Shown here piece after piece: positions 36,386-53,272 of a DNA stretch of 64,000 nucleotides. How positions within the stretch are numbered: the stretch's first letter is position 1; each line of letters begins with the position of its first letter. The DNA is taken from contig CAWFGE010000012.1 of the NCBI GenBank assembly GCA_963815195.1, forward strand, positions 864,001-928,000, written 5' to 3'. The notes beneath the pieces were generated by a model that was given only the letters and a program-made list of their open reading frames with translations, was not told where the DNA came from and did no database searches. Source of the stretch: an uncultured Planctomycetaceae bacterium. GTDB taxonomy: Bacteria > Planctomycetota > Planctomycetia > Planctomycetales > Planctomycetaceae. Made by a program: the position numbers and the translations under genes.

Positions 36386-36399
36386 GGTTTTCGATTCCC

Positions 36400-36539
36400 G
36401 ATCACACAAGGCGAGCGGCCGGCGTAAGCCGGCTGATCACTCACGATTGCTTGAGTTGATTTCAGTCGTTCCAAATTACCGAAAAAGGGCCGAAGGTCCG
36501 GCTCTATGTCAGCCCAGGGCGCAGCCCTGGGAACGCAAA
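36400..36539 (+). repeat. Family C REP followed by the left arm of family B
   Basis: GATCACACAAGGCGAGCGGCCGGCGTAAGCCGG; 36469-36536 similar to 2671-2738. Confidence 0.75.
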
Positions 36540-37101
36540 CGGCGGGGTGGCTGGGGCGCAATGGATTGGATCAATCAAAAAACTCGTTTCGAAAGCTGGG
36601 GCCACGGAAGATCTTTCTCTCACATCCATGGCCCCAGTATTCGCTTGCCTAATTTTATTCGTAGACGAATCTGCGCCCCAGCCACCCAACCGCAATATGT
36701 CAACCGAGCTCGATCACACAAGGCGAGCGGCGGGGTGGCTGGGGCGCAATGGATTGGATCAATCAAAAAACTCGTTTCGAAAGCTGGGGCCACGGAAGAT
36801 CTTTCTCTCACATCCATGGCCCCAGTATTCGCTTGCCTAATTTTATTCGTAGACGAATCTGCGCCCAGCCACCCAACCGCAATATGTCAACCGAGCTCGA
36901 TCACACAAGGCGAGCGGCGGGGTGGCTGGGGCGCAATGGATTGGATCAATCAAAAAACTCGTTTCGAAAGCTGGGGCCACGGAAGATCTTTCTCTCACAT
37001 CCATGGCCCCAGTATTCGCTTGCCTAATTTTATTCGTAGACGAATCTGCGCCCAGCCACCCAACCGCAATATGTCAACCGAGCTCGATCACACAAGGCGA
37101 G
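36540..37101. repeat. Three tandem copies (188/187/187 bp) of a REP-doublet unit
   Basis: Units start at 36540, 36728, 36915; internal IRs GGGTGGCTGGGGCGCA/TGCGCCCCAGCCACCC and CTGGGGCCA/TGGCCCCAG. Confidence 0.92.
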
Positions 37102-37201
37102 CGGCCGGCGTCAGCTGGCTGACTACTCTCGATGGTTTCAGTTGATTTGCCTTTTTCACGATCGCTCGCATTCGTGGGAATTCTTGAAACATTCTGCGTC
37201 A

Positions 37202-43738: not shown

Positions 43739-43910
43739 CGCCGGGTGCCACTGGCAGGTTGCTGCCAGTGTTTTCCTCAGATCACATTCCAGTTTGATGG
43801 GAGCTTTCGTCAGCCTACTCCGTAAAAGCACTGGCAACAAGTTGCCAGTGGCACCCGAAAGATTTCTTATTGAGAGGACAACGAATTAAACTAACAGTCC
43901 CACCCCGCCG
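43739..43910. mobile_element. 172-bp REPIN-like element A, copy 1
   Basis: Inverted GGGTGCCACTGGCAG..TGCCAGTG / CACTGGCAAC..TTGCCAGTGGCACCC doublet plus a 52-bp tail ending CCACCCCGCCG; four copies in the window. Confidence 0.9.
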
Positions 43911-43960
43911 TTCCAATATTTTTACCCTACGCCCTACGGTATGCCACCCCGCTGCTGCAC

Positions 43961-44584
43961 TCACATTATGACGTTGCCCAAGCTGGACAGTGCTTCTCGA
44001 AGTTCATCCTCAGCACAATTAAACTGCTTTGCGAGGGTTGGTGCATAATCAACTATCGCCGAAGTTATGTTAGGTTGATTCGGTAAGTCCGTTGCCCAAA
44101 CCGAAATCCGTCCCGGCCATTCAATCGCCTCAATCTCATTCCGCCGTTCGTGGGGATTTAGGATCGTGAAGCACGGCCATTTGGGTAGCTTGATGGAACT
44201 AATATCACAATCCATGAACCGGCAGCCATCAAGCACAGCTTCGGAAAAATCGCAGTCCGCGATGCTACCGTTCTCGCAATTGACACCATAATCTGGCCAA
44301 TGTCCGAACTCGTGTCCAACGTAATGGCCTGTGAAAGTGCAGCCACTAATTGCTGCCGCTAACCAAGAAAAATTGGCAAGCTTCTTCTTAACTTCAATTT
44401 GGCAGTCGATTATTTGTACGTTATTCACAATGTGCAGCAACCTTGCCGTGGTTCGCAGGATTAGTCGGCAGTGTCTCAGCGTAAGGTCAGAACCCAAGTA
44501 GTTGTTGTCGTTGTCTGTTAGGATAAGCTCTGTCTCTTCGAGAGTCTGGTTCTCGATGATACGACTTTCAGCATAATCTGGCAT
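43961..44584 (-). CDS. AT-richer hypothetical protein with beta-helix/pentapeptide-like segments
   Basis: RBS GAGAAGGA; CDFSEAVLDGCRFMDCD; visibly lower GC than the flanking core genes. Confidence 0.75.
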   Translation of the reverse strand: MPDYAESRIIENQTLEETELILTDNDNNYLGSDLTLRHCRLILRTTARLLHIVNNVQIIDCQIEVKKKLANFSWLAAAISGCTFTGHYVGHEFGHWPDYGVNCENGSIADCDFSEAVLDGCRFMDCDISSIKLPKWPCFTILNPHERRNEIEAIEWPGRISVWATDLPNQPNITSAIVDYAPTLAKQFNCAEDELREALSSLGNVIM

Positions 44585-44692
44585 GTCCTTCTCCCGAGTG
44601 TGATGTTAAATCAAAATTCGATCATGCGGAACAAAACATCGGCCATCCGTCGGGCATGAAGATCCAAGTTGAACCGAGTAAGTGTAGTAAGT

Positions 44693-44713
44693 GTAGGGCC
44701 GGCTGTGCCGGCC
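44693..44713 (+). repeat. GTAG-type REP flanking the RAYT
   Basis: GTAGGGCCGGCTGTGCCGGCC, perfect inverse of 45317-45337. Confidence 0.9.
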
Positions 44714-44726
44714 TTTTGCCTTTTGT

Positions 44727-45293
44727 TTACTCGCCGGCGGTTTCTTCAATGTCGGAGAAATCCAGCACGCCGTATTTCTCCCAACAGGCCCAATGGTCGG
44801 GATATACACCCTTCTTAACCCAGCGGTGAAAACTGGACCACGGCCATTCGCGGGGGCATCGCACGTAACCGTGTTTCACCGGATTGTAATTTATGTAATC
44901 GAAATGCCGCTCGAAATCGTCCTCCGTCTCCAACGTATGCTCCCAAAACTTTGGTTGCCACACCCCGCGTCGGCCGTCCCGTTTGCGGCCCTCGGTTTGT
45001 CGTTGTTCGCAGCCTCCGAGCGCCAGCCAGTTTTTTGTAAATTCCTTCTTGATCCAACCCCACCGTGTGGAGTAGGCCTTATCGCCGGGCGGCAGCGACC
45101 AGATGGCGTGCAGATGGTCGTGAAGCAGCACAAGTGCGTTGATCGTGAACGGCCATTTCATCCGGCAGCGGCGAATGATGCTGCCGAGCATGGGCCGCGC
45201 CGGGATGCCCGTCAAAAAGCGTGCCCGACGGTCGGAGACGACCGTGAAAAAGAATGAGCCTCCGGGAACATGGGCGCGTCGCCAGTTGGGCAT
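44727..45293 (-). CDS. rayT: REP-associated tyrosine transposase (RAYT/TnpA-REP, HUH Y1)
   Basis: MPNWRR..VPGG.FFFTV, HUH motif DHLHAIW, WQPKFWEH, catalytic Y in YINYNPVKHG, WPWSSF; flanked by inverted GTAG REPs. Confidence 0.93.
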   Translation of the reverse strand: MPNWRRAHVPGGSFFFTVVSDRRARFLTGIPARPMLGSIIRRCRMKWPFTINALVLLHDHLHAIWSLPPGDKAYSTRWGWIKKEFTKNWLALGGCEQRQTEGRKRDGRRGVWQPKFWEHTLETEDDFERHFDYINYNPVKHGYVRCPREWPWSSFHRWVKKGVYPDHWACWEKYGVLDFSDIEETAGE

Positions 45294-45316
45294 GATCGTC
45301 GTTCTCCTCATCGAAA

Positions 45317-45361
45317 GGCCGGCACAGCCGGCCCTACGTGGCTAACAGTGCCACCCCGCCG
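45317..45361 (-). repeat. GTAG REP followed by the 20-bp terminus of element A
   Basis: GGCCGGCACAGCCGGCCCTAC then CTAACAGTGCCACCCCGCCG (45342-45361). Confidence 0.88.
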
Positions 45362-45391
45362 CGGCGGGCCCTACTTCCCTTAGACCGGTTT

Positions 45392-45940
45392 CTACGTGAG
45401 TGGAGCGATTGGCGGAAATGGGTGAAATCCCGGTTCGCTGAATCTGATGTTATCCTCTTTTTGGAGCAGATCTAGGACAGTCGGGGATGCGATGACAACC
45501 GTAGTGTCGTTATCAATGTACGAAGCGAAAAAGCGATCCTCGATTCCTTCGTTTTGCAGCTCGGAGTTCAACGCTCCTAATGTCCGATTCGTGGTCGTGA
45601 GCCAAAAACTGGCGTGACTATCCTCGGGCATTCGCCAAAGCATGAAGCGATCCCCATTTATGAACAGGTCAGCGCGTTTGCCTTGTACGAACGGCATTTC
45701 CAATTGGTGGATCGTTAATCCTAATTGCTCCAATGATGGCTCTACGGAGCGAATGAAGCCGATCGGCCCCCTCTCGGCTATATCTTCTGCGTCTAAGTCG
45801 AAAACGCGGTTCGTACCCTGTTGCAGTATGTAGTTCGACTCGACACATTGCTGGCGCACTTTGTCGGCCATCTCGGTTGAGCAGAGATTGTAAAATCCCA
45901 GGTAATCCAAGGCGTCGACAAGTTTTTGTATATCAGTCAT
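45392..45940 (-). CDS. AT-richer hypothetical protein
   Basis: 182-aa ORF, visibly lower GC, bounded by repeats. Confidence 0.75.
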   Translation of the reverse strand: MTDIQKLVDALDYLGFYNLCSTEMADKVRQQCVESNYILQQGTNRVFDLDAEDIAERGPIGFIRSVEPSLEQLGLTIHQLEMPFVQGKRADLFINGDRFMLWRMPEDSHASFWLTTTNRTLGALNSELQNEGIEDRFFASYIDNDTTVVIASPTVLDLLQKEDNIRFSEPGFHPFPPIAPLT

Positions 45941-45984
45941 TTTGTATTACGCAATCGCAGTGCCATTTGGAACGAAATTGAAGG

Positions 45985-46156
45985 CGCCGGGTGCCACTGG
46001 CAGCTTGCTGCCAGTGTTTTCCTCAGATCACATTCCAGTTTGATGGGAGCTTTCGTCAGCCTACTCCGTAAAAGCACTGGCAACAAGTTGCCAGTGGCAC
46101 CCGAAAGATTTCTTATTGAGAGGACAACGAATTAAACTAACAGTGCCACCCCGCCG
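45985..46156. mobile_element. 172-bp element A, copy 2
   Basis: Appears identical to copy 3 and nearly identical to copy 1. Confidence 0.9.
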
Positions 46157-46265
46157 CGACCCAAGGTTGCAAGCAACCTGCGCCACCCTGCGAATAGGTT
46201 AAATCGGAACATGGCATTTTCCAAAATTAAGGTTGCAGCCGTGGGGATACATGCTGGTTTCGGGA

Positions 46266-46883
46266 TCACCGTTTAACCACCAACTTGTCAGCCGATTCAG
46301 AGACCGGCCCGCCGGGATACCAAATCTTGGATTTGACGTGGTTCATCTTGTAAATCCGAGTTAGCGGCGTATGCCATTCTTCGGCGACTTCAGGGGTGTC
46401 GATCTCCCCAATTGTCGGCGACCGGAGCAATTCAGCGACGGGCTGTTCCGGCAGAACGGCCTTGCCGTCGAATCGGTTCTCGATCACCGAAGCGGCTTTC
46501 CGGAGAGCGATTCGCTCCCTCAATTTGGATCGTTGCGCGACCCCTTCAGGCGATGCCGTGTAATCGCCACTTTGGACGATGTTCAAGAAATTCACGCAAA
46601 GGGCAACCGACAAAACAACCATGCCCCAACGGACCACGCGAAACAACTTCTCCGAGCGGCAGAACAACCCCACGATCAGGATGGCTAGCGTGGGGATGAT
46701 CCATTCCGCCTTTGGTGTCCCATTGGCGTTCAGAACCAATGTGCAAAGCACGCCGACGACGATCATTGGGACAATGGCATTGATGATCTCGCCGGCTCTC
46801 CGCCCCTTCCCGAATCGGAAGGCGACGAACAGCATCGCCAACACCGATGATCCCGCCAACAAGATGAGATGCAACAAAATCAT
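46266..46883 (-). CDS. Hypothetical membrane protein (about four N-terminal TM helices)
   Basis: RBS GGAGG, hydrophobic segments. Confidence 0.72.
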   Translation of the reverse strand: MILLHLILLAGSSVLAMLFVAFRFGKGRRAGEIINAIVPMIVVGVLCTLVLNANGTPKAEWIIPTLAILIVGLFCRSEKLFRVVRWGMVVLSVALCVNFLNIVQSGDYTASPEGVAQRSKLRERIALRKAASVIENRFDGKAVLPEQPVAELLRSPTIGEIDTPEVAEEWHTPLTRIYKMNHVKSKIWYPGGPVSESADKLVVKR

Positions 46884-47026
46884 GGTATCCGGAACCTCCG
46901 ATCATCGGTAAACGCCGAAACCCCAGGTCGTGCCCGGAATCCCGATCACAAATCTGACTGCTCCATAACAATCGGCCCCGTCGAGCCGGGCTTCCACTGC
47001 GTCGGCGATCTCTTTGGAGAAGCAAC

Positions 47027-47198
47027 CGCCGGGTGCCACTGGCAGCTTGCTGCCAGTGTTTTCCTCAGATCACATTCCAGTTTGATGGGAGCTTTCGTCA
47101 GCCTACTCCGTAAAAGCACTGGCAACAAGTTGCCAGTGGCACCCGAAAGATTTCTTATTGAGAGGACAACGAATTAAACTAACAGTGCCACCCCGCCG
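47027..47198. mobile_element. 172-bp element A, copy 3
   Basis: Same sequence and orientation as copy 2. Confidence 0.9.
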
Positions 47199-47281: not shown

Positions 47282-48042
47282 TTACGTTTCCGTCCCGGAA
47301 TCGCCTTCGCTTTCCACGCCGGGCGGCTCGATCCGGCCGCGGCGCTGCAACCAGCGGGCCATCAGCCAGCAACCGATCGCCCACACGGTCCCCGCGGTCC
47401 AGCCGGCGAGCACGTCCGTCGGCCAGTGCACGCCGAGATACACCCGGCTGACGCCGACCGCGATCGTCAAGAAAATCCCAACCGCCACCAGATAAACCTT
47501 CACCCGCCGCGACTTGTGCGCCGGGCCAAAACGGCCGCGAGCGTAAGGTAAGTGATCGCCGACATCATGGAATGCCCGCTGGGAAAACTGCTTGTGTAAA
47601 CATAGGAGCCGTGGGGCACGAGATCGGGCCGGGGCCGGCTGAAGCCGTACTTCAATATCGACCCCACGAGAATCCCGCCTCCGACCGTAACCGCCAGAAA
47701 CAGCGCCATATGCCCTTTTCGCTCCAAAAGCAGATAACCCACGAGCGCGGCCGTGAGTAGCGTGAGCACCGTCATTCCGCCCAGGGCCGTGAAATCCCGG
47801 CCCATTTCCTCGACCCACCGCGGCCCGATGGGGTCTTTCCGGTCGTGCGGATTTCGGAGCGCCAACAGGATCCTTTCATCCACCGTTTGCGTGTCCTTCT
47901 CGGAGACTTCGTCGGCGAGCGCCGCGAACCCCCACAGCCCGGCCGCGATCACCGCCAGCCCCAACAGCAAGGCCAATTCCTCGCGGAGCAGCCCCCGAAA
48001 AAACGGCTTCCACACCGCGATTCGCTCGCGAATCCATTGCAT
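47282..48042 (-). CDS. PAP2 (phosphatidic acid phosphatase type 2) family protein, frameshift near 47520
   Basis: K..FSRPRP, SFPSGHS, SRVYLGVHWPTDV. Confidence 0.88.
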
Positions 48043-50218: not shown

Positions 50219-51178
50219 TCAGAATGCGCTCAGGCCCGTGCCTTTGGGCGCTTGAGGCGGAGCCATCTCCGCCAGCGCCGATGCGACGGCCTCGGCCACG
50301 GATCGATCGATGCCGGCCCCGTTTAAGTCGGCCGGCAGGTTTTCAAAAGCCACGGCTTCTTCGGAGAGGCCAATCGTGGACGCGATCAACTCGCTGATGC
50401 CCGCCGGGTCCTCCAGACGCAGCACATGCTGCCCCAACAGATCCCGCCAGCAATCGAGAATGCTCGGGTCGTTGTAGTAGGAAGTCAGGTTCGGCAGCAC
50501 ATAGTAAATCTCGAACTTCTCCCGGGCCTCGGCAAGGATGTCCCGGATCGGAATGTCGGCTTGCAGTTTCTCGCCGAAGACCGCTTCCACTTCCCGCCGC
50601 TTGACTTTCTTGTAGGGCATTTCGTCCCCGATAATGAACGCATAACCCTTCTTTCCGCGTTTTTCCAGGCAATCCATCGCCGTCTTGCGGGCGAGAAAAT
50701 ACAAGGCGAGCTCGTAAGACTCCGTCTTCTGCCCGCCGCCTCCGCCTTCGAGATACAAGTTCCCCAGGTCGTTCTCGATCTCGTTGCCGGACTCAAACTG
50801 CCCGATCTGTAAGGGCACCAGGTCGCAGGTCGCATCGCCAATGGCCCCGATTAAAATCGAGGGATCGTCGAGATAACCCCGCCGGAGACAAAGCCCCATC
50901 AGCGTGGGCAGGTTCTTCTGCAGGATGCGGGGCACCTGTTGCATCGAGCCGGTGACATCGAACAGCACCGCGACGGCATTACTTTGGGGATGGGCTTCGC
51001 TGTCCCGGGCTTCGCGAAGTCCGTGCTTCATCTTGGCCGGGTCCATTTTTTCATGGACGCCCGCGCGGACCCGCCGCTCGCGAATGTCCTCGTCGTAGCC
51101 GAAGGCCGACCGGTTCGCGGCCGACAGGCTCCGGGCTCTCGCGTGATAATGTTCGTCGGACCATCGGGTTCCCCCCAT
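50219..51178 (-). CDS. vWA-like domain protein
   Basis: RBS GAAAGGAG; MIDAS-like FDVTGSM, AIGDA, EGGGGG...ESYELA, FIIGDE. Confidence 0.8.
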   Translation of the reverse strand: MGGTRWSDEHYHARARSLSAANRSAFGYDEDIRERRVRAGVHEKMDPAKMKHGLREARDSEAHPQSNAVAVLFDVTGSMQQVPRILQKNLPTLMGLCLRRGYLDDPSILIGAIGDATCDLVPLQIGQFESGNEIENDLGNLYLEGGGGGQKTESYELALYFLARKTAMDCLEKRGKKGYAFIIGDEMPYKKVKRREVEAVFGEKLQADIPIRDILAEAREKFEIYYVLPNLTSYYNDPSILDCWRDLLGQHVLRLEDPAGISELIASTIGLSEEAVAFENLPADLNGAGIDRSVAEAVASALAEMAPPQAPKGTGLSAF

Positions 51179-51194
51179 GATTGGCTCCTTTCTG

Positions 51195-52160
51195 TTAAGA
51201 CATGTCAAGAGGGTGAAATGCGGGAGGGCCGTAAAGCCCTTCCAGAATTGCGCCAAATTCCTGGCGGACGTTCCATGCGCTTTGCGACCGCATGGTGGGC
51301 GATTCGAGCAAACAGCCTTTCACAAACCGCTCGATCGCGGGCGGAACGTGCTCGGGCATCAAGTTCAAAACCGGATCGCCGCCGGCCAGATAGATCAGGC
51401 TTTTCGCGGCGAGGTAAATATCCACGGAAGGCGTGGCGGGATGTTTTTTCTTGCACTCCGGCGGGTACCAGTCCTTGAACCGCTCGGGAACGAGCTTGAG
51501 GGAGGTGTTCGCTTTCTCTGCGTGAATCCAGCCCACAACGAGGAGGCCGTGGTTCTCGGGGTGAAACAACAAATGCGGCGGCAGCACCGCCCCGTGAACA
51601 TAGCCCTGCTCGTGCACGAACCCCAACGCTTCCAACACGCGGTTGAACATCCAGCCCAGATGCCGGCCGTCCAAGCCGCGGTGATGCCGATCCAAAATCT
51701 GCTCCGCCGAGTAAAACCCCTCCCGCCAGGTAGAGACGTTGACGAGGCCCCGCTTGTGCGGAAACAATTCCACCGGCTGCGGGAAATACTGCCGATAAAC
51801 CTTTTCGCTGCTTTGCTTCTCGAGATGCTGGAGCAGCGAAAACTCATTCGCCATCAAGCGTTTGCCGCTCCGCACGTCGGTGATTTTGAGCACGTATTCC
51901 GCCTCTCCGCTTTTCGCGCGGTGCACCTCGCACAGATCGCCCGAGCCGATGGGCTCGATCATCTCATAGGTCCGCCGGGGCGAGACAATTTCTGATACGC
52001 TTAGGACCTCCGAATTTTTCGGCGGACCGGGATTCGGTTTCCAGAATCTCCTTCTCAAGTGCTCTTGAAACATCGCCAGCACCGTCGCCATCACCAGCAA
52101 CGTGAGAATCGTCCAGCCGGCGGCATTGGATTCCTGAAAGACATCGAGCCAGCGGTCCAT
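51195..52160 (-). CDS. Protein-kinase-fold protein with degenerate catalytic motifs and an N-terminal TM helix
   Basis: IGSGD, VLK, E helix, HGAVLPPH in place of HRDxxxxN, VGW in place of DFG, WYPPE, DIY. Confidence 0.75.
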   Translation of the reverse strand: MDRWLDVFQESNAAGWTILTLLVMATVLAMFQEHLRRRFWKPNPGPPKNSEVLSVSEIVSPRRTYEMIEPIGSGDLCEVHRAKSGEAEYVLKITDVRSGKRLMANEFSLLQHLEKQSSEKVYRQYFPQPVELFPHKRGLVNVSTWREGFYSAEQILDRHHRGLDGRHLGWMFNRVLEALGFVHEQGYVHGAVLPPHLLFHPENHGLLVVGWIHAEKANTSLKLVPERFKDWYPPECKKKHPATPSVDIYLAAKSLIYLAGGDPVLNLMPEHVPPAIERFVKGCLLESPTMRSQSAWNVRQEFGAILEGLYGPPAFHPLDMS

Positions 52161-52175
52161 GTTGCCCCCTTTCCC

Positions 52176-52937
52176 TCAGCGGTTTGACGGCTTTTTGAAA
52201 CGATAGAGTTCCGCCGGGCGGTGGCCTACGTCGGCTTCGCGTTGTCCCGTGGGCACGATCAAACCGGAACCTGAGAGCCGCCGGCGAAACGAATCTTTAT
52301 TGTACCGCCGGCCGAGGATGGTTTCGTGAATGGATTGCAATTGCCGGAGCGTGAATTTCGCCGGCAAGAGCTCGAACCCGATCGGGGCATAATCCAATTT
52401 CCCCCGCAACCGTTTGACCGCGAGGCCCAGAATCTCCGCGTGATCGAACGCGATCGGCAGTTTTTTTCCTGTCTCATCCACCGCCAGGGCCGGTCCGCCG
52501 CGTTCGCCTTTCCAGGGAATTTGGAGGGCGACCAGCCGGGCGTTCTGGTCTTCAAAGCGTTGCCCGATAAGCACCTGGGCATCGACCAGGGCATAATACG
52601 CCACCGTGATGACCCGCGTCCGCGGATCGCGGCGGGGATCGCCGAAGGTGTAAAGCTGCTCCAAAAAAATCCCCCCGAGGCCGACTTTGGTTTCCAGCAC
52701 CCGCCCAGCCGCGGCATCCAGCGACTCCTTCATCCCCACAAACCCGCCCGGCAGACTCCATTTCCCCAATCCCGGATGCTCGCCCCGGCGAATCAGCACC
52801 GCTTTGAGCTGCTCCTCATCCACCGTCACCAGCGCCACATCCACGCTCACGGAAGGATGCGGATACAAGGACGCATCATAGGCGGCGAGAAACTCCTTCT
52901 CGGACAAGACCTCTGGATTCTGCCGCTGTTTTTTCAT
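52176..52937 (-). CDS. nrtR: NrtR-family regulator (NUDIX + C-terminal wHTH)
   Basis: SVDV, WSLPGGFV...ESL, LEQLYTFG.P.RDPR, AFDH..I, FTL..LQ, FRR, RPAELY. Confidence 0.88.
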   Translation of the reverse strand: MKKQRQNPEVLSEKEFLAAYDASLYPHPSVSVDVALVTVDEEQLKAVLIRRGEHPGLGKWSLPGGFVGMKESLDAAAGRVLETKVGLGGIFLEQLYTFGDPRRDPRTRVITVAYYALVDAQVLIGQRFEDQNARLVALQIPWKGERGGPALAVDETGKKLPIAFDHAEILGLAVKRLRGKLDYAPIGFELLPAKFTLRQLQSIHETILGRRYNKDSFRRRLSGSGLIVPTGQREADVGHRPAELYRFKKPSNR

Positions 52938-52947
52938 GCCGACCCCT

Positions 52948-52987
52948 TATCTACATAAAGCATATATGTAAAATGCATCTAAGTCAA
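52948..52987 (-). promoter_or_regulatory. Sigma70 promoter TTGACT-17-TATGCT overlapped by two imperfect 19-bp palindromes (candidate NrtR operators)
   Basis: -35 at 52987-52982, -10 at 52964-52959; TATATGTAAAATGCATCTA (52963-52981) and TATCTACATAAAGCATATA (52948-52966). Confidence 0.65.
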
Positions 52988-53100
52988 GCGGGTGAATGGC
53001 AGATTTTTTTTGGCGGATCGAAAAGCGAATTTGAAATTAACTTGGAATGATTGGGCGATTCTTCAGCTCACAGGAATTCCCCGCTCAGCAAGTCAGGATC

Positions 53101-53272
53101 CGCCGGGTGCCACTGGCAGCTTGCTGCCAGTGTTTTCCTCAGATCACATTCCATTCTGATGGAAAGTTACGCCAGCCTACTCCGTGAAAGCACTGGCAAC
53201 AAGTTGCCAGTGGCACCCGAAAGGCTTCTTATTGAGAGTACAACGAATTAAACTCACAGTGCCACCCCGCCG
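53101..53272. mobile_element. 172-bp element A, copy 4 (diverged)
   Basis: Same length and ends; substitutions fall mostly in the spacer and tail while the palindromes are preserved. Confidence 0.88.

Follow-up and report, generated by a model that had tools for sequence, protein, structure and literature searches.

How do genes that show no sign of a common origin come to be stacked in one orientation between near-identical copies of a short repeat? The question is raised by an array at positions 43739 to 47198 of the window analysed here, a stretch of 64,000 nt (contig C12, positions 864001 to 928000) from the genome of an uncultured Planctomycetaceae bacterium (G000; 8.9 Mb, 25 contigs). 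The array interleaves three co-oriented genes (g1, g2 and g3) and one gene that codes for a RAYT (REP-associated tyrosine transposase) with copies of a 172-bp element, element A, which lie in the same orientation at 43739, 45985 and 47027. REP denotes a repetitive extragenic palindromic sequence, and REPIN an inverted pair of REPs that forms a hairpin. The original prediction, made from the letters of this DNA, had taken the array for one integron-like platform in which the RAYT drives gene capture and element A is the cassette boundary. Our analysis confirms the arrangement, which is real and recurrent: the three copies are 99–100% identical, the RAYT is a genuine family member, and element A delimits foreign cargo, its ends being joints between unrelated DNAs, with the same kind of array found elsewhere. 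The parts belong to the REPIN-RAYT system, and the array is not one integron-like platform; several REP families form such arrays at many loci, with cargo cut mid-gene from operons. RAYTs likely splice foreign genes into these bacteria, which would be a new role for them.

The features of the array, together with a fourth copy of element A that had been overlooked, are as follows (window positions).

43739..43910, minus strand: element A copy 1 (A1), with a CG-ended T end, 55-nt tail, REP, spacer, inverted REP and CG end; host/foreign border before the amidohydrolase gene
43911..43955, minus strand: decayed REP remnants behind g1, an H-like end and a GTAG foot by sequence and family resemblance
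43961..44584, minus strand: g1, pentapeptide-like, 207 aa; homolog context predicts an orphan immunity protein against a SitA5-type toxin C-terminal domain; GC 0.48
44611..44679, minus strand: last 22 codons of the predicted cognate toxin gene; homology begins at the CT closing the RAYT unit
44680..45342, minus strand: GTAG-type REPtron, with the RAYT gene (44727-45293) inside inverted REPs (~44693-44714 and ~45316-45337) and a CT joint at both ends
45342..45361, minus strand: 20-nt stump of a further A copy, cut by the REPtron at CT (sequence comparison with A)
45392..45940, minus strand: g2, 182 aa, unnamed family, with a short upstream frame whose stop overlaps the g2 start; GC 0.50
45985..46156, minus strand: element A copy 2 (A2), by copy alignment
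46157..46212, minus strand: half REP of another family (46157-46192) and truncated start of the following gene, by sequence
46266..46883, minus strand: g3, encoding a predicted membrane protein of 205 aa; a 41-codon open tail starting at the CG of A3 lies before it; GC 0.56 and GC at third codon positions 0.70, near the host
47027..47198, minus strand: element A copy 3 (A3); host/foreign border behind the PAP2 gene
53101..53272, minus strand: fourth A copy, 93% identical, a different sub-variant

Structure of element A

In the direction of the genes, element A opens with a terminus that starts with CG, continues with a 55-nt tail and then with a REP and an inverted REP separated by a 50-nt spacer, and closes with CG. 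It is a 116-nt REPIN plus a tail, terminated by CG on both sides, and shows the defining features of a REPIN, an inverted REP pair that forms a hairpin and is repeated between genes. The palindrome originally ascribed to the entire element is present and covers only 116 of the 172 nt. This core folds at -36.8 kcal/mol, compared with -13.8 ± 2.8 kcal/mol for 200 mononucleotide shuffles. A2 and A3 are identical in sequence, and A1 deviates from them at 2 of 172 positions; a base common to all three is missing in three copies on contig C15. The genome holds seven near-full-length copies at ≥91% identity plus shorter ones, about 20 family members. The 12-mer terminus occurs 73 times (6.7 expected under a 5th-order Markov model), and its start, CG-NNN-GGGTGGC, also opens other REP families, named H and W here. 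The four gene-end termini noted earlier (43900, 43942, 45350 and 46145) all exist; the one at 45350 belongs to the A stump, and that at 43942 is a decayed end resembling another REP family.

A 5-bp CGGCG target duplication was considered and ruled out, since CG alone is common to the families and the empty alleles. A search of Rfam gave 0 matches, a sigma-70 scan found two sites (chance level), none inside A, and the GC skew was too flat for a test of replication-strand bias. In the JGI metagenomes, the 30-mer at the host junction had 0 matches and the A pattern had one, from another organism. An A-family element with the same terminus-tail-REPIN plan also occurs on an unrelated metagenome contig of higher GC (L172:1730-1900).

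The RAYT associated with element A

The window RAYT scores 164 bits against NF047646 (cut-off 80). HUH and catalytic tyrosine motifs are present in the RAYT sequences, and those of the window RAYT resemble subclass 2.2 in a by-eye comparison with Table 1 of PMC6006769. GTAG REPs flank it in inverted orientation in every copy examined. It is not a single-copy, non-mobile gene: a 99% identical fragment lies on C20, and the congeneric genome G001 has two copies that are 97% identical. The left end of its unit, in gene direction, meets the 20-nt A stump at CT; the window RAYT was inserted into a copy of A at CT.

Two RAYT clades, with approximately 24% identity between them, occur in the genome. 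The second is represented by one intact-looking gene (C11:44466-45059), also above the NF047646 cut-off, and by broken copies on C13 and C15 that adjoin the T half of A; it is present in 45 of 150 other genomes of the family. Among the 30 loci of this clade that were listed, one of them from G000 itself, the REP foot of A occurs at 27 and the GTAG REP of the window type at one. Element A was therefore assigned to the second clade, as a non-autonomous derivative of it. The window RAYT, with its GTAG-type REPs, is not the enzyme of element A, contrary to the original prediction.

Cargo genes

As had been noticed, g1 and g2 are visibly AT-richer than the host (GC ~0.60). All three genes had been described as having no known function, which still applies to g2 and g3. 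The g1 gene is a predicted orphan immunity gene because of the gene context of its homologs. It has 58 matches including itself; identity to the best named locus is 75%, and the other loci are mostly from myxobacteria. A conserved C-terminal domain directly precedes the g1 homologs in most of the 28 loci listed, and the single full-length example of this upstream protein that was scanned is a SitA5-family polymorphic toxin. The window retains the end of such a domain before g1, starting from the CT of the RAYT unit, and a homolog of this tail has CT at the joint position (one case, for which chance is possible).

The g2 family comprises 170 clusters at E≤0.001 and is unnamed. With the query used, g2 had no match in 300 other genomes of the phylum, and 23 relatives scanned had no Pfam family in common. 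The Atlas matches of both g2 and g3 are unnamed clusters, and g3 has one homolog (51%). An open frame runs from the CG of A3 into the region before g3, and behind g3 a gene start is cut at the half REP. Of the 83 island open reading frames (ORFs), 67 were scanned, and most have no family; those recognized include Imm22 (one), SMI1/KNR4-type (three), DUF7674, DUF4274 and ankyrin proteins. This count covers island ORFs only and is without a control.

Junctions and host duplications

Element ends, junction dinucleotides, cargo truncated at the joints, local near-identical direct copies and host duplications can all be read directly from the assemblies. Among 95 two-ended elements from G000 and six G001 loci (nested elements included), an element-free homolog of one flank was available for 29. 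None of these 29 is a clean insertion; 17 join unrelated DNA, the other flank not continuing within 400 nt, and 12 lie in local duplications. The dinucleotide at the joint was as predicted (CG or AG) in the empty allele in 27 of the 29. Non-autonomous IS200/IS605 elements are recognized by clean insertion, contiguous flanks and no duplication, a pattern found in 0 of 29.

At five G000 loci (C15 at 388 kb, C6, C4, C15 at 624 kb, and C21), a host duplication (65–264 nt, 90–99% identical) whose start is the element's CG surrounds the cargo; a control with random CG positions gave 2 of 600. The duplication at 388 kb on C15 has 65 nt, and two A copies surround a 297-aa gene. At 624 kb on C15, the copies are 90% identical in DNA yet encode the same 55 residues, which would be expected had one of them been acquired from a relative. 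The C6 copies diverge at the stop codon, and the C4 duplication spans from CG to a CT behind a GTAG REP. One such duplication, of a gene end, was found in G001 around an element-gene-element unit (55 nt, 84%).

Genome-wide distribution and related genomes

The enrichment of element A beside low-GC genes, proposed as a check of the original prediction, was found. Flank GC is below 53% at 36% of A T-ends (n=22), 33% of H ends (n=39) and 45% of GTAG ends (n=71), versus 7.5% of intergenic controls (n=4885) and 9% for the W family (n=120). In 14 cases, a co-oriented frame has its 3' end towards the T end of A; 3 cases show the opposite, and 5 have no frame (control, 173:159). Low-GC ORFs lie near REPs more often (48/478) than host-like genes do (202/6173), with an odds ratio of 3.3 as counted with a rough gene caller that missed g1. 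Ends of A, H and GTAG elements form 27 pairs 0.45–6 kb apart, compared with <0.5 expected, and 26 of them are direct. The median identity of near pairs is 99–100%, versus 92–98% for distant pairs; the W family shows no near-pair effect. Similar arrays exist at approximately 12 loci in G000, and also in the congener G001 and in G044, from another genus.

The G001 array is independent and has four direct, CG-ended elements of 238 bp (99.6–100% identical) among co-oriented genes, two of which are SMI1/KNR4. The pieces between its elements begin or stop mid-gene; one of them, a Clp-like fragment, loses its homology to G000 at the CG. Its host flank maps to C20 of G000, the site of a different REP-bounded toxin fragment and partner gene. 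In the single-contig genome of G044, two 190-bp REPINs flank a homolog of g1 that has the same toxin tail. Two other planctomycete homologs of g1 have no toxin tail, and one of them also has no flanking hairpin in a simple scan. The loci in genomes G002 and G003 are less clear. Gene order is scrambled every 1–3 kb among G000–G003, even at 80–89% DNA identity. The comparison of the amidohydrolase-PAP2 interval, also proposed earlier, found that the two genes are not neighbours in G001–G003, a result that is uninformative because of this scrambling, nearly every block mapping elsewhere.

Other loci with REP elements were observed in these genomes. An intact PT-HINT toxin-immunity array (Tox-HNH, Imm50) in G001 contains one H-family REPIN and has a GTAG RAYT at the edge (L027:4189-10549, G001 C4). 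L030 (G001 C19) and G000 C20:129817-130588 share a toxin-antitoxin-like pair of genes (86%), which at both places follows A-type REPs but in different surroundings; in G001 the pair is repeated in tandem. In G044, approximately ten small low-GC genes, among them Imm11 and a g1 homolog, follow a probable leucyl-tRNA synthetase gene and are separated by several repeat types (L212:7071-14640). Fragments of a single Clp-ATPase-like gene recur, each cut at CG against a REP end (G000 C11:81780-83555, C15:543262 and C20:287881; L203:5759-6605).

Proposed mechanism and alternatives

RAYTs cleave single-stranded DNA at CT, both close to a REP and at a distance, and the 3'-C is joined to a cut end (PMC8266576, PMC3333891). 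In vitro, TnpA-REP links an oligonucleotide with 3'-C to cleaved REP DNA (PMC8266576). We lean, with modest confidence, towards an array built by RAYT strand transfer together with homologous recombination, REP ends having been joined to unrelated DNA at CG or CT. A RAYT would nick single-stranded DNA just 3' of an inverted REP, at C|G in the A and H families or at C|T in the GTAG family, and would pass the 3'-C to the G or T of another nicked strand, each REP end being joined independently to unrelated DNA. An element that had landed behind a foreign gene could then be excised with the gene as a circle, the second nick falling upstream, often within a toxin gene. The circle would recombine into a resident copy of the element, which would give element-gene-element, or into the host gene end that it carries, which would give a host duplication starting exactly at CG. 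Pieces with whole genes, such as immunity genes, would be retained by selection. We infer active capture, as against local hopping and deletion. A wider proposal is put forward more tentatively and may well prove wrong, namely that planctomycete REPINs and RAYTs form a distributed, integrase-free system of gene acquisition, in which the toxin-immunity operons of rivals are cut at CG or CT and the immunity gene is kept and stacked between duplicated REPINs.

Several observations weigh against capture by strand transfer. C|G is absent from the RAYT cleavage sites reported in the sources consulted (CT and CA; CC, GA and GT with altered guides), and the published guide rule leaves it unexplained. 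The sole intact-looking RAYT of A's clade in G000 has a variant REP. The flank test is biased towards repeated or mobile flanks and its query held the dinucleotide, and an insertion followed by an adjacent deletion yields identical non-contiguous flanks. Several other far ends of duplications fall on no cut dinucleotide, and the window array itself has no host duplication. The 27 end-pairs stem from approximately 12 loci, with 6 of the 10 A pairs coming from the window array; 430 of the 478 low-GC ORFs lie away from A, H and GTAG REPs, and 202 host-like genes lie near them. Neither circles nor excision were seen, nor any gain or loss between strains. Run contigs, with near-identical pieces in X1, which may be the source sample, and a few in X2, gave no joint readable as excision, contigs being prone to lose rare forms and the piece from g3 to A3 being 30 nt against a 31-nt threshold.

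The main alternative is an account in which whole foreign islands, often toxin-immunity loci, arrive by other means, REPINs hop in locally, and RAYT-driven adjacent deletions reach to distant CG or CT, the array being a by-product without capture. Such a history accounts for the direct orientation, the local identity, the toxin tails and the non-contiguous flanks; the intact PT-HINT array of G001 would be a plausible early stage, most foreign genes carry no REPs, and the islands abound in stumps, nested elements and broken RAYTs. We still consider it rather unlikely, given that it requires a deletion in 17 of 17 informative cases with no clean insertion left, and does not yield host duplications that enclose cargo from the CG of the element, least of all those with divergent copies. 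Here, moreover, A stands at both borders of the island, and the three genes show no common origin. Recombination on its own is less probable again. RAYTs would just scatter REPINs, and RecA recombination among near-identical copies, whether genomic or carried by incoming DNA, would shuffle adjoining genes into arrays. Copies of 170–240 nt at 99% identity do serve as recombination substrates, gene order in the genus is scrambled, and two A-family copies on C21 share a 9-nt flank in inverted orientation. Recombination alone, however, cannot give cargo that starts or ends mid-gene at CG or CT, nor CG-anchored host duplications; it is a component of the strand-transfer model and not a full alternative to it.

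Two further explanations seem highly improbable. One is a true integron cassette array severed from its integrase and invaded later by REPINs, to which the small co-oriented genes and an integron integrase encoded in the genome would correspond; this integrase lies on another contig, the crude attC scan was empty here and near the integrase alike, and the cargo starts inside upstream genes. Equally remote is a misjoining of unrelated contigs at repeats. The assembly does contain probable indel errors, PAP2 being read in two frames, but the layout recurs in G001 and in single-contig G044, the joints follow fixed dinucleotides, and the duplicated copies differ in sequence.

Other features of the window

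A vWA-like gene, a Ser/Thr kinase and an NrtR-type NUDIX regulator lie at 50219-53272, with the fourth A copy just upstream. Three W-family REPINs in tandem (187-nt unit) occupy 36399-37148; the host flank around them is duplicated and ends at CG. The two-frame PAP2 gene is at 47282-48042, where an assembly indel is probable, and the gene before 36409 likewise appears frameshifted.

Significance and comparison with known systems

The host benefit of RAYTs and the movement of REPINs in cells are stated to be open questions (bioRxiv 10.1101/2021.07.10.451892, PMC8266576). With G000, a direct test of gene capture by RAYTs comes within reach: its natural junctions obey a rule (3'-C joined to G or T), the putative cut dinucleotide is new, and an intact candidate enzyme (C11:44466-45059) and defined substrates are at hand. 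Capture, if true, would be a route to orphan-immunity arrays besides rAID and integrons. The wider proposal would also supply the host benefit long sought for RAYTs, and might drive the extreme gene-order scrambling of the genus.

In an integron cassette array, a repeated site comes after each gene and the orientation is uniform, and the present layout is alike in this respect. Unlike an integron, it has no adjacent IntI, its cargo is cut from operons mid-gene, and its repeats are 99–100% identical within the array. Integron cassettes carry no pieces of former neighbours; here a toxin tail precedes g1 and a truncated gene start follows g3. The earlier statement that an integrase is missing holds near the array, where no integrase gene was seen, but not for the genome, in which the only match above the TIGR02249 cut-off lies on C25; the nearest weak match on C12 is 111 kb off. 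The crude pattern-plus-fold scan for attC found none in the array, nor near the real integrase, and was thus without a positive control; Rfam likewise had 0 matches. The C25 gene (C25:20804-21541) is at a contig end, and a C-terminal piece occurs at C21:244862. In G002, an integrase-like gene lies near an H-family REPIN (L206).

IS91/ISCR elements and Helitrons use HUH chemistry, have one precise end and capture neighbouring genes or gene fragments. Named in PMC3333891, they resemble the present system in these three respects; here the enzyme is a small Y1 RAYT, not a Y2 or RepHel protein, and the ends are palindromic two-REP structures. TnpA-REP genes beside prochlorosin genes (bioRxiv 10.1101/2020.03.09.984088) are similar in that RAYT genes or fragments are interspersed with a variable gene repertoire. 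The REPIN/BIME-RAYT systems and REPtrons (PMC3116915, PMC3333891, PMC8266576, PMC6006769) share with the array the hairpin-forming inverted REP doublet, the HUH Y1 nuclease flanked by the same REP, the fixed joint dinucleotide (CT in the GTAG family) and the tandem clusters. Sequestration of flanking genes by TnpA-REP was already proposed in 2012 (PMC3333891). No literature on REPIN-delimited immunity arrays was found in a search that lay mostly outside subscription journals and outside supplementary material; Figure S7 of PMC3333891, part of that material, deals with sequestered genes and could affect novelty.

The rAID orphan-immunity arrays of Bacteroidales (PMC12247911) are alike in their co-oriented, short, low-GC genes, their predicted immunity proteins, including SUKH/SMI1, and their conserved intergenic motifs. 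In contrast to rAID, which has a tyrosine recombinase, none is associated with the present array; the motifs here are mobile REPINs, such arrays stand at many loci, and the immunity function is predicted. The layout works like rAID without its recombinase.

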